The notes under the pieces are model-generated. The model was not told where the DNA came from. It saw only the letters and a program-made list of their open reading frames with translations, and ran no database searches. From the NCBI GenBank assembly GCA_014238525.1, contig JABAAY010000002.1, positions 1 to 47,121 on the forward strand: 47,121 bases of DNA, in the 5' to 3' direction. Source of the stretch: Mycoplasmatales bacterium (GTDB taxonomy: Bacteria > Bacillota_I > Bacilli_A > Mycoplasmatales > JABAAY01). A program made the position numbers and the translations under genes. Shown piece by piece: positions 9,315-12,857 of this stretch (position 1 is the first letter of the stretch; the number at the start of each line of letters is the position of its first letter).

Positions 9315-11876
9315 TTAAGAACCACACGCGACGCAATCATCGGGATCGTTAATTGAACAAGATAGTTGTTCATCAGCTAAATCATCATTCTCAATTATGT
9401 CAGATGAGAATTTTCTTGTTTCTTCTGTGCTTAGTCTGGTTTGTTTTGATTTTTGAGAAACAGTGAATTGAATCGCATTAGCAGCAGATTTAGTTCTTAA
9501 ATAATATAAACCTGTTTTTAATGCTTTTTCTGGCGTAGACCCGAACACTAAGTTGTCTTTAATAGACTCTAATTCTAGATTCAATAATTCTTTTTCTTCA
9601 GAAGTAGCGGTTTTGATTTTCTTTTGAATTTCTTTATACTTATTAAATGCCTGAACATCCTTAGTTACACCGTTTCCTCACCCATAAAAGTGCATTGTAT
9701 TTAAAGTTCCGAAATTAGGATCCGCCAAATGTATATTCATGGATTGTGTTTGATCTATGAAAGGGGCCCTTTCAGAATAAAGGTCAATAACGCTTCGTTG
9801 ACTTATTTCTCAAACAGTTTTATATTTTTGTTTTATTTTGTCGCTTACATCCAAATTTTGAACACTACCGTTGTTCAATTTAATTTCATTAATTAATTCT
9901 GGAGTTCATAACTTTTCCTTAACAAGGTCATTAACAAGATGTCTGTTAACAACAATGTACTCGCCTGCTAAAACTCTTCGCACATATAAATTAGAGACTT
10001 GTGCTTCGCAACTCGCTTCATTATTAAAAATGGTGGCTGTGGAAGCGGTAGGCATCGAGCAAGTTAATAGCGAATTTCTGACGCCATATTTTCTAATGTT
10101 TGTGCGTAATGTTTCCCAATCATAATCATCACTAGGTTTAACGTTTCACATATCAAATTGAAGAATTCCCTTGGAAATGGGAGACCCTTTATATGTTTTG
10201 TATGTTCCGTCTTTTTTTGCAATATCATTAGATGCCGATAAGGCAGCAAAATAAATGGTTTCAAAAATCTTAATATTTATTTTCTTTGCTTCCTCGCTGT
10301 CAAAATTTATATCCATTTTAAAGAATACATCTGCTAGTCCTTGTGTTCCCAATCCTATTGGTCTGTGTTTAAGATTAGAAAATTTAGCAGACTCAACTGG
10401 ATAAAAGTTTACATCTATAACCTTGTCTAAATTTTTTGTTGCAAAGTAAGCAATTTCTTCTAGTTTTTTATAATTCATTTTTTTGTTTTCAACAAAACGA
10501 GGTAATGAGATGCTTGCTAAATTACAAACAGCAATTTCGTCAGCGGAAACGTATTCTAAAATTTCTATACAAAGATTAGATGTTTTTAATGTCCCAAGAT
10601 TTTTTTGATTAGACTTAATGTTCGCAGAATCTTTATACGCAATATACGGTGTTCCAGTCTCAATTTGAGACTCTAGAATTAATTTTCAAAGCTCTCTTGC
10701 TCTAACTTGTCTTATGTATCTTCCTTCGCTTTCGTAACCTTCGTATAGTTTTACAAATTCTTCTGCATATACTTCCTGCAAACCAGGACACATTGATGGA
10801 CACATTAATGATCACATTTCGTCTTTTTTTACTCTTTGCATGAATAAATCATTCATTCAAATTGCATAGAATAAATCTCTTGCCCTCATCTCTTCTTTAC
10901 CATGATTTTTTTTCAAATCAAGAAAATCAAAAATATCATTATGTCACGGCTCAAGATAAATTGCAAAGGCACCTTTTCTTTTCCCACCGCCTTGATCAAC
11001 GTATCTTGCTGTTTCGTTGTAAACTTTTAACATTGGGATTAGACCGTTAGAAATTCCGTTTGTACCGGAAATATAAGAGCCTGATGCCCTAATGTTAGAA
11101 ACGGCCAATCCTATTCCGCCAGCTGTTTTGGAGATCATTGCAACTCGATGTAACGTATCATATATGCCTTGAATACTGTCATCGGTAACTGTTAATAAAA
11201 AACAAGAGGATAATTGGGGATGTAACGTTCCTGCATTAAAAAGTGTCGGCGAAGCGTGAGTAAAATAGTGTTCAGACATGTAGTTGTATGTTTTGATTGC
11301 AGAATCAATATCGTTTTTGTGAATCCCAATTGCTACTCTCATGTACATGTACTGTGGTCTTTCTATAGGATATAGTCCTCCGTGTTCGTCACTGTGTTGT
11401 TTTAATAAATATGATTTAAAGAGAGTTCCATACGCCATGATATTAAAATAATAATCTCTAGAACTGTCTATGGCAGCATTCAATCTGTCTTTGTTTTTCA
11501 TTACTATGTCGTAGTGTTCTTTAGAAATTTGTGGAAGAGCACGATTCAGTACCTTGTCGTGATAACGATAAAGTAATTCCGAACATTCGTCAAAAGTGCT
11601 TGGCGTATCTTTGTACAAGGCTTTTATTGCTAAACGACCAGCCAAAAGTAAGTAATCCGGGTGTTTCGCTCCGCAAGAAGCAGCGGTTTCAATTGTTAAT
11701 TGTTCCAATGATCTTGTAGAAACACCTGGATATAATCCGTTAATAACTTTTTTGGCTATTTCAAGTGGAATTACATATTCGCTGTTCAAGCTAAACATTG
11801 CAGACTTGATGAATTTTAATATTTTTTCTAAGTTAACATTTTGTTTTTTGCCATTTCGTTTAACTACGTATGACAT
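9315..11876 (-). CDS. nrdA: Ribonucleoside-diphosphate reductase large subunit, class Ia, eukaryotic RRM1-like (853 aa)
   Basis: The ORF pieces join across TGA codons only, checked codon by codon. Evidence for the call:
- ATP-cone start [16 protein letters not shown].
- [24 protein letters not shown].
- [84 protein letters not shown].
- SNLCIEI.
- A C-terminal tail ending [10 protein letters not shown]; human RRM1 ends ...DECLMCGS. Confidence 0.93.
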
Positions 11877-11879
11877 GTC

Positions 11880-12857
11880 TTAAAAATCCGAATCAAAGTT
11901 TATTGCATTGTCTTTTTTACCAACACCGGCTTTTTTGTACTCGGAAACTCTTTTTTCGAAAAAGTTAGTTTTTCCTTCCAATGAAATCATGTCCATGAAA
12001 TCAAAAGGATTTTCTGAATTATAAATTTTTCCTATGTGTATTCTTTCTAATCAGAAATCAGCCACATACTCTATGTACTGGCACATTAATTTTGCGTTCA
12101 TGCCAATAAGAGCAACTGGTAACGATTCCTCTACAAATTTTTTCTCAATTTCAACTGCTTCTTTGAAAATATTTATTATTTGGTTTTTGGGCAATTTATT
12201 AACAATATGATTGTTGTATAAGATAGTAGCAAATTCACAATGTTTCCCTTCATCGCGAGAAATCAACTCATTCGAAAAAGTTAATCCTGGCATTAATCCA
12301 CGTTTTTTCAATCAAAAAATCGCACAAAAACTGCCAGAAAAGAATATTCCTTCTACAACCATAAATGCTATTAATCGCTCTTGGAATGTTCCCTTGGTTA
12401 TTCATTTAATTGCTCATTCAGCTTTTTGTTGTACGATGGGAATGGTTTCAATGGCTTTAAACAAATGCTCTTTTTCCTTAGGGTCTTCAATATAGGTATC
12501 TATTAGAAGAGAATAAGTTTCGGAATGAATGTTTTCCATTGCGCCTTGGAATGCATAATAAAAACGCGCTTCTGTATATTGAACATCTACTATCATTCTT
12601 TCAAGAATGTTTTCGTTCACAATTCCATCACTAGCGGCGAAAAAGGCAAGAACATACTTAATAAAATGTTTTTCTCCGTCATTTAATTTTTTTCTTCAGT
12701 CAGTTAAATCGGCATGTAAGTCTATTTCTTCTGCTGTTCAAAACATAGCCTCCACTGCTTTGTACTGTTCTCACAAGTCAGCATGCTGAATTGGGAAAAT
12801 AACAAACCTGTCTTCTGTTTTTACCAACAGAGGTTCTACTAAGTTTTTTTCTTCCAT
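11880..12857 (-). CDS. nrdB: Ribonucleoside-diphosphate reductase small subunit, class Ia, eukaryotic RRM2-like (325 aa)
   Basis: ATG at 12857 follows an AAAGGGGA Shine-Dalgarno. Evidence for the call:
- [26 protein letters not shown].
- [12 protein letters not shown].
- [21 protein letters not shown] (Fe ligands and radical Tyr).
- [26 protein letters not shown].
- [26 protein letters not shown].
- The tail ends ...NFDSDF.

All internal stops are TGA. Confidence 0.93.

Follow-up and report, generated by a model that had tools for sequence, protein, structure and literature searches.

How did a ribonucleotide reductase (RNR) of eukaryotic type come to lie within the ribosomal protein/RNA polymerase gene cluster of a Mollicute? 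The question is raised by contig JABAAY010000002.1 of assembly GCA_014238525.1 (a Mycoplasmatales bacterium), which was analysed over its 47,121 nucleotides (hereafter the window) and in which two genes, nrdB and nrdA, encoding the small (R2) and large (R1) RNR subunits, are found between rplL and rpoB. As detailed below, these genes very probably form a functional two-gene operon coding for a class Ia RNR of the NrdAe/NrdBe subclass, and we are equally ready to accept that the pair was acquired horizontally and inserted at this place. Comparison of both subunits with their homologs suggests a lineage of huge phages as a moderately likely source, and the account as a whole, i.e., a functional NrdAe/NrdBe operon derived from huge phages, inserted into the cluster and then ameliorated, appears probable to us.

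Open reading frames (ORFs) were called under translation table 4; under table 11, every gene of the window is fragmented. With these calls, the presence of an R1/R2 pair between rplL and rpoB in a Mollicute reading UGA as Trp, which an initial annotation had proposed from the letters alone, is confirmed, and all the R1 and R2 motifs quoted at that time are found in the sequence, including the CxxCGS end of R1 (CVACGS) and the final DSDF of R2. The segment 9315-12857 extends precisely from the stop of nrdA to the start of nrdB, in the following arrangement:

13352-13858, minus strand: rplJ (table 4 ORF)
12976-13338, minus strand: rplL, the upstream flank of the insertion (table 4 ORF)
12858-12975, minus strand: rplL-nrdB spacer of 118 bp, with a Shine-Dalgarno-like AAAGGGG
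11880-12857, minus strand: nrdB, class Ia R2 (NrdBe-type), 325 aa, MEEKN...FDSDF (table 4 ORF, Pfam and PDB matches)
9315-11876, minus strand: nrdA, class Ia R1 (NrdAe-type), 853 aa, MSYVV...CVACGS (table 4 ORF, Pfam and PDB matches)
9223-9314, minus strand: nrdA-rpoB spacer of 92 bp, with a perfect TATAAT at 9281-9286
5689-9222, minus strand: rpoB, the downstream flank of the insertion (table 4 ORF)
1962-5687, minus strand: rpoC (table 4 ORF)

Only 3 nt separate the nrdB stop from the nrdA ATG, and the cluster additionally includes rplK, rplA and two plus-strand genes ahead of rplJ. Both nrd genes are written in the code of the host, with 8 TGA and 1 TGG codons in nrdA and 7 TGA and no TGG codons in nrdB. 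Wherever nrdA has a TGA, 42-51 of 51 R1 homologs have Trp in the aligned column; the TGAs of nrdB fall on columns that are Trp in 27 of 27 R2 homologs, except for one column (12/27). The YLEPW, KTVW and MFW sites, where TGA had been read as Trp in the initial annotation, are among these columns. Of note, a 20-nt inverted repeat (9301-9320 and 11878-11897, 85% complementary) brackets the nrdA ORF and pairs the nrdB stop/nrdA start region with the nrdA stop region; it may be due to chance in such AT-rich DNA.

The assignment to a subclass relies on domains, scores and individual residues. R1 matches the ATP-cone (PF03477, aa 3-89, E = 6e-10), Ribonuc_red_lgN (PF00317, aa 144-218) and Ribonuc_red_lgC (PF02867, aa 223-737) families, and thus combines an N-terminal ATP-cone with an all-alpha domain and a ten-stranded barrel, as also seen in an AlphaFold2 (AF2) model with a predicted template modelling score (pTM) of 0.85; R2 matches Ribonuc_red_sm. 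When R1 is compared with all PDB chains, human RRM1 gives 990 bits, yeast Rnr1 896 and Pseudomonas aeruginosa NrdA 488, followed by Escherichia coli NrdA (230) and class Ib NrdE (about 140). Similarly, R2 scores 425 bits with human p53R2 and mouse R2, 400 with yeast Rnr2, 116 with Chlamydia R2c and 50 with E. coli NrdB. The likeness to RRM1/RRM2 noted earlier hence exceeds that to generic class Ia enzymes, with bit scores about four to eight times those of the E. coli proteins, and eukaryotic R1/R2 resemble the pair more in sequence than do NrdAg/NrdBg (E. coli), NrdAz or NrdE/F. The expression "eukaryote-type" used in the initial annotation is therefore appropriate for the subclass, but not for the donor, because NrdAe/NrdBe enzymes are also widespread in Bacteroidota, their phages, huge phages and giant viruses.

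Functional residues point in the same direction. The R1 positions concerned are the thiyl Cys C436, the redox pair C225/C451, N434 and E438, the Y791/Y792 dyad and the C-terminal C848/C851, all of which are invariant in a 34-sequence alignment. The corresponding features of R1 are:

11610-11870, minus strand: ATP-cone, allosteric activity site, R1 aa 3-89 (PF03477)
9501-9506, minus strand: Y791-Y792, radical-transfer Tyr dyad of R1 (invariant in the 34-sequence alignment)
9324-9335, minus strand: C848-x-x-C851, C-terminal redox shuttle of R1 (alignment)
9522-9677, minus strand: lineage-specific insertion in R1 (aa 734-785, GNGVTKD...FGSTPEKA), flanked by the FYGW helix and the LKTGLYYLR strand

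Alignment of R2 to the mouse and human proteins predicts D77, E108, H111, E169, E203 and H206 as di-iron ligands and Y115 as the radical Tyr, while W40 and Y307 are the residues of the radical pathway. The R2 tail, ...EKRVSEY307KKAGV...INFDSDF, aligns to human ...FTLDADF and thus includes both the pathway Tyr and the R1-docking end. The six D, E, H, E, E, H ligands and the radical Tyr separate classes Ia and Ib from classes Ic, Id and Ie. This set of residues is that expected of a di-iron/tyrosyl-radical class Ia enzyme, and a class Ib identity finds no support: R1 reaches 201.6 bits with the NrdE model TIGR04170 (cut-off 750) and carries an ATP-cone, and R2 reaches 68.8 bits with the NrdF model TIGR04171 (cut-off 355). 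No nrdI gene adjoins nrdBA, and no second R1 or R2 homolog is present within the 47-kb window.

Based on these conserved residues, catalysis would start with the formation of a radical on Tyr115 of R2 at the di-iron center. The radical would then travel through W40 and Y307 of R2 to Y791/Y792 and C436 of R1, allowing the C225/C451 pair, together with N434 and E438, to reduce nucleoside diphosphates. The active site would in turn be re-reduced by the C-terminal C848-x-x-C851, using an external thiol reductant, and the N-terminal ATP-cone would place overall activity under ATP/dATP control.

The Mollicute enzyme thus resembles human RRM1/RRM2, p53R2 and yeast Rnr1/Rnr2 in its single ATP-cone, all-alpha domain and barrel, and shares with eukaryotic RNRs the catalytic Cys/Asn/Glu set, the YY dyad, CxxCGS, the di-iron ligands, the radical Tyr and an acidic-aromatic R2 tail; its R1 aligns to human RRM1 nearly without gaps over 730 residues. 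Unlike in eukaryotes, nrdB and nrdA follow each other in a bacterial operon, with a 3-nt gap and UGA as Trp, and the Mollicute R2 is devoid of the long N-terminal extension. In addition, a 52-residue segment (aa 734-785) precedes LKTGLYY in place of 3 residues in human RRM1, i.e., a net addition of about 49. The NrdAe/NrdBe enzymes of Bacteroidetes and of Tenacibaculum and Cellulophaga phages belong to the same eukaryote-like subclass and are of similar size (identity to the window proteins of about 50-59% for R1 and 65-70% for R2), but their R1s do not have the FYGW/LKTG insertion, and they are the nearest clade in neither the R1 nor the R2 tree. The nearest proteins for both subunits, which have the insertion in common with the Mollicute, are instead those of huge "Mahaphage"-type phages (LR756504.1; L178, 348 kb; P0004-P0013 and P0016). 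These phages nonetheless differ from the Mollicute in using the standard code, in the order of the genes (R1 then R2 in L081) and in the interruption of the LR756504-type R1. As to the Mollicutes themselves, class Ib NrdE/NrdF/NrdI is their usual system. It is found, in its Ib/Ie forms, in Mycoplasma and Mesoplasma (Srinivas et al.; bioRxiv 10.1101/348268), and shares with the window pair the class I chemistry and the host class, but not the subclass; unlike in class Ib/Ie, the window R1 has an ATP-cone and the window R2 keeps all six metal ligands.

The insertion in R1 is a rare and diagnostic character. A signature, GWG[GN]GVTKD...[YF]G[SA]TPEKALKTG, is common to the sponge Mollicutes (see below) and to a group of huge-phage R1s defined in this analysis as clade A (P0004-P0013, P0016, L086 and LR756504.1), and the window R1, where it reads GWGNGVTKD..., carries this clade A variant. 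A plain 16-residue spacing is observed in 96 eukaryotic and Bacteroidota hits. Neither the 79 cellular loci outside Mollicutes that came from 185,579 species genomes nor any named Bacteroidota protein that was inspected has the insertion. When DNA from IMG/VR and from JGI metagenomes was scanned for TPEKALKTG, true R1s were recovered only on L178 (348 kb), L185 (636,443 bp) and two shorter contigs, L183 (identical to L086, an IMG/VR viral contig) and L189 (unclassified); the same scan returned no additional TGA-coded copy. Relative to the 16-aa spacing, the added length is usually 17-21 aa in clade A, 49 aa in the Mollicute and about 80 aa in P0005 and P0006. A different insertion of 37 aa (GWGRR...LKTG) occupies the same R1 site in clade B, a second huge-phage group composed of LR756502.1 and IMG/VR contigs of 150-465 kb (L087, L092, L094, L100, L104, L166, which is LR756502.1, and P0014). 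From these sequences, the loop preceding the Tyr-Tyr dyad is an insertion hotspot in phage R1s.

An AF2 model computed from the 34-sequence alignment (mean predicted local distance difference test score, pLDDT, of 82.5) shows the insertion as an alpha-helical hairpin, with helices 741-756 and 759-775, placed between helix 722-733 and the strand bearing Y791/Y792. The pLDDT of the hairpin (85-95) is to be taken cautiously, as only two of the aligned sequences have the long form of the insertion. In R1 structures from E. coli and eukaryotes, the corresponding region adjoins the cleft that binds the C-terminal tail of R2, and an effect of the modelled hairpin on subunit docking is plausible.

Outside eukaryotes, NrdAe/NrdBe enzymes are encountered on Bacteroidota and Bdellovibrionota chromosomes, in Tenacibaculum and Cellulophaga phages, and on many IMG/VR contigs of 100-465 kb and giant-virus metagenome-assembled genomes (MAGs), and a eukaryote-to-Bacteroidetes transfer of the NrdAe enzyme has already been reported (Lundin et al., 2010; PMC3019208). 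Within this broad family, the relatives of the window proteins can be narrowed down. On trimmed columns, identity of R1 to the window is 60-66% for clade A and about 54-59% for Bacteroidota and animals. The best R2 matches (70-74%) lie on the same contigs as the clade A R1s, with human and mouse R2 at 62%. In neighbour-joining bootstraps of R1, the group nearest to the Mollicutes is solely clade A in 94.5% of replicates with 20 states and in 91% after Dayhoff-6 recoding, whereas the Mollicutes join eukaryotes in 0.5-1%; for R2, the grouping of the Mollicute with clade A has 91% support. Hidden Markov models (HMMs) built for each clade and applied to the window R1 with its insertion removed give the same order, with 1333 bits for clade A, 1215 for clade B, 1209 for Bacteroidota, 1193 for Bdellovibrionota and others, 1189 for eukaryotes and 1166 for giant viruses and other phages. 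The Mollicute and clade A have, moreover, the derived motifs WMxDLFMQRV, EASxEAQ and DQTQS in common. Two other candidates for nearest relative, P0002 (Cordylochernes scorpioides, 1480 aa, 1812 bits) and P0003 (Sarcophaga bullata, 1213 aa, 1370 bits), were rejected: both are tandem fusions of two true arthropod RRM1 copies without the insertion, and this duplication inflates their scores.

Clade A is taken as viral because of the synteny between L084 and LR756504.1, its IMG/VR contigs and the 636-kb record. LR756504.1 is an "uncultured phage" record of 636,363 bp, and the gene adjoining R1 in L084 is 70% identical to the R1 neighbor in LR756504.1, with weaker homologs in jumbo phages. Mahaphage genomes, for which Bacteroidetes hosts are predicted, have been completed at 634, 636, 642 and 735 kb (Al-Shayeb 2020; PMC7162821), and we infer from lengths that LR756504 and LR756502 are among them. 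In LR756504.1 (L167), L178 and L185, the R1 frame that matches the query begins only around residue 299 and is preceded by a TAG and an unrelated N-terminal stretch. Matches to the remainder lie elsewhere in the LR756504.1 record; the gene is thus split, for which an intron, an intein or recoding may be responsible.

The sequenced hosts of the pair form a narrow group. GCA_014238225 and GCA_014238525 are Mollicute genomes of about 0.67 Mb from the glass sponge Vazella pourtalesii, in a deep-branching Mycoplasmatota clade (PMC13599016); the original sponge paper contains no discussion of the Mollicute MAGs, and a paper on Argiopiplasma was the sole publication recovered for the MAG accession. 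An R1 that is 94% identical to that of the window (P0001) is found on JABABL010000002.1 ("Mycoplasmatales bacterium bin5p", GCA_014238225) and on two ENA contigs, and the order rplJ-rplL-nrdB-nrdA-rpoB-rpoC is the same in all four assemblies (the window, L172, L173 and L174). Neither a search of 5.8 billion proteins nor a scan for patterns in 185,579 species genomes revealed a further Mollicute or Firmicute copy, so that, among the genomes and proteins covered, the pair is known only from Vazella pourtalesii Mollicute MAGs. Beyond these, identity drops directly to 57-60%, in phage-borne matches, and ordinary Mollicute or Firmicute NrdAB proteins, which would have contradicted the transfer proposed in the initial annotation, are not the nearest homologs. 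For the RpoB of the window, no relative beyond the sponge Mollicute group exceeds 57% identity. In L174 (ENA ERZ26869290 ctg310568), fragmentary and partly inverted copies of nrdB and rplL (97-2040) precede a normal rplJ-rplL-nrdB-nrdA-rpoB array; this oddity probably results from chimeric assembly and is not biological.

Comparison with more distant relatives shows what the junction looks like when it is not occupied by nrd genes. In two Spiroplasma-like contigs (L175 and L177), rpoB follows rplL after about 150 bp, and an Erysipelotrichales-like contig (L176) has one methyltransferase gene between them. As relatives thus have the two genes adjacent or separated by one small gene, the nrd pair is an insertion into the rplJL-rpoBC cluster, in agreement with what had been proposed at the outset. 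No convincing direct repeats flank the insert. Another interruption of the cluster is observed between rplA and rplJ on the opposite strand (13957-15016, plus strand), and consists of a gene of the isochorismatase family (PF00857, 205 aa) and a 143-aa ORF without annotation, which are kept in the sister species (L172/L173, 6860-7901) and absent from the Erysipelotrichales-like L176.

In codon usage and GC content, the nrd genes match their neighbors. Their GC content at third codon positions (GC3; 0.26 for nrdA and 0.28 for nrdB) and their root-mean-square codon-usage distance to other genes (0.068 and 0.118, respectively) are within the range of flanking genes. Synonymous divergence (dS) and the ratio of nonsynonymous to synonymous divergence (dN/dS) were calculated between the window and the second species (L001, GCA_014238225):

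nrdA: dS 0.83, dN/dS 0.036
nrdB: dS 0.60, dN/dS 0.019
rpoB: dS 0.74, dN/dS 0.025
rpoC: dS 0.69, dN/dS 0.025

As the dS values are similar to those of rpoB and rpoC, the pair was already present in the common ancestor of the two species. Both genes are under purifying selection of housekeeping level, as strong as for rpoB and rpoC, which lends indirect support to a function for the nrd genes. Flank-like codon usage and GC3, together with these dS and dN/dS values, indicate a long residence; with TGA read as Trp, the adoption of the host code suggested by the initial annotation is thereby borne out. The spacers are conserved as well: between the two species, the rplL-nrdB spacer is about 93% identical and the nrdA-rpoB spacer about 92%, with 41-50% of synonymous sites differing in flanking genes, and the TATAAT at 9281-9286, upstream of rpoB, is among the conserved elements. 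This points to regulatory sequences that are probably under constraint. Neither spacer has a terminator-like site on the coding (minus) strand. The scans for terminators and promoters yielded nothing beyond what shuffled sequences give, and no Rfam match was obtained in the window. The nrdBA genes may be co-transcribed with the ribosomal/RNA polymerase cluster.

Taken together, these data suggest the following history. nrdB and nrdA would have been acquired together, by horizontal transfer into an ancestor of the sponge Mollicutes, from a lineage of huge, probably Bacteroidota-infecting phages with an insertion-bearing R1. Their insertion at the rplL/rpoB junction would predate the divergence of the sequenced sponge Mollicutes, and they would afterwards have been fully converted to the codon usage of the host, including TGG to TGA, while being held by purifying selection. 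The initial annotation had left a eukaryote, a virus or a bacterium with the eukaryote-like subclass as possible sources of a horizontal acquisition; such an acquisition is supported, and the neighbour-joining trees favor huge phages. Several points nonetheless weigh against this history. All trees are neighbour-joining trees, and eukaryotes were sampled only through animals and yeast. Some attraction is possible, given a long Mollicute branch and the AT-rich DNA (27-33% GC) of Mollicutes and phage contigs alike, and exact monophyly of clade A falls to 64.5% upon Dayhoff-6 recoding. Several clade A contigs are short and, taken by themselves, only putatively viral; among ten neighbors of clade A R1 genes, PHROG recognized only RtcB, an RNB nuclease and a phosphohydrolase, the results being mostly uninformative, and one large L081 protein has no match in the phage collection. 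Finally, the direction of transfer and a possible bacterial intermediate are deductions, and enzyme activity, metal content and allostery are predicted from sequence.

Other donors have thus to be considered. Preference is given to huge phages over a eukaryote because of the shared insertion and the trees of both subunits. A direct transfer from the sponge host or a protist would fit the eukaryotic character of the subclass, the identity to animal proteins (about 54-59% for R1, 62% for R2) and the life of the symbiont within an animal (PMC13599016). However, clade A is nearer for both subunits, eukaryotes do not have the insertion, no eukaryotic protein ranked above clade A in the 5.8-billion-protein search, and the two genes adjoin each other in an operon, as they do in phages and bacteria. 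Furthermore, eukaryotes are monophyletic to the exclusion of the Mollicute in 94.5% of Dayhoff-6 bootstraps and are joined by it in at most 1%, which makes a eukaryotic donor highly improbable. The insertion variant could instead have belonged to a cellular bacterium, Bacteroidota or another sponge associate, from which phages and the Mollicute each obtained it. The abundance of NrdAe/NrdBe in Bacteroidota and Bdellovibrionota, the unproven origin of some short clade A contigs and the branching of the Mollicute close to the base of clade A instead of well within it are compatible with such a donor; yet the absence of the insertion from the 79 cellular loci and the inspected Bacteroidota proteins, and a signature scan that gave only huge-phage contigs, one IMG/VR viral contig and one short unclassified contig, make it unlikely.

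Transfer in the opposite direction, with the variant arising in Mollicutes and being captured by huge phages, draws on the fact that neighbour-joining does not settle the position of the Mollicutes relative to the base of clade A. It would nevertheless require the reversion of 15 TGA (Trp) codons, which are stops in the standard-code phage contigs, and would start from genes that exist in a single narrow Mollicute lineage; in addition, clade A is diverse and groups with the huge-phage clade B in 73.5% of bootstraps, and the present trees suggest that the Mollicutes are nested among phage sequences. We consider this scenario very unlikely. As for a chimeric MAG contig or an ancestral Mollicute RNR inherited vertically, the metagenomic origin of the contig and the assembly oddities of the related L174 could invite the former. 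The nrd genes have, however, TGA as Trp and the codon usage of the host, the same junctions with conserved spacers recur in four assemblies from different samples, and nrd dS equals that of neighboring genes; vertical descent is further opposed by the lack of a close homolog in other Mollicutes or Firmicutes and by the adjacency of rplL and rpoB in relatives. Both versions are scarcely credible.

Elsewhere in the window, the lysyl-tRNA synthetase gene, which is normally essential, is interrupted by an in-frame TAA at 44345-44347 (minus strand), between ORFs 44348-45004 and 43484-44344, at the position of the conserved Arg of the ...GGAAARPF... motif (GGAAA*PFITEHN); the gene may be a pseudogene or be read through, or the TAA may be an error of sequencing or assembly. 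Tandem paralogous lipoprotein-like genes lie at 2-664 and 648-1901 (plus strand), with a counterpart at 20004-22515 of L001; they have no Pfam match, and their products consist of a signal peptide, a Gly/Ala-rich middle and a conserved C-terminus, ...TYDYSxWxIEK. Comparable surface-protein-like ORFs are located at 35195-35902, 41067-42440 and 45001-46629. A 945-aa OppA-like ORF has 14 TGA codons and no TGG.

Horizontal transfer of RNR genes is already well documented, and the present case extends current views without overturning them: an enzyme subclass already known to be mobile is here found in a new host lineage and as a lineage-specific variant. The Mollicute joins the short list of prokaryotic lineages with a eukaryote-like NrdAe/NrdBe enzyme, and huge phages are suggested as vehicles that carry an essential RNR between phyla, in a chain that would lead from a eukaryote to Bacteroidota (as published), and from there to a huge phage and to the Mollicute (as proposed here). 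Even in a reduced genome, the conserved rplJL-rpoBC cluster is thus seen to accept foreign genes, and the pair offers a datable case of complete TGG to TGA recoding after transfer, while the insertion beside the radical-transfer dyad provides a natural variant for probing the R1-R2 interface. More speculatively, and with considerable doubt on our part, the phage-derived RNR might have replaced NrdEF(I) and become the sole route to deoxynucleoside triphosphates, making this organism the first Mollicute to depend on an ATP-cone class Ia enzyme, with the hairpin as a phage innovation that alters R2 docking or oligomerisation.

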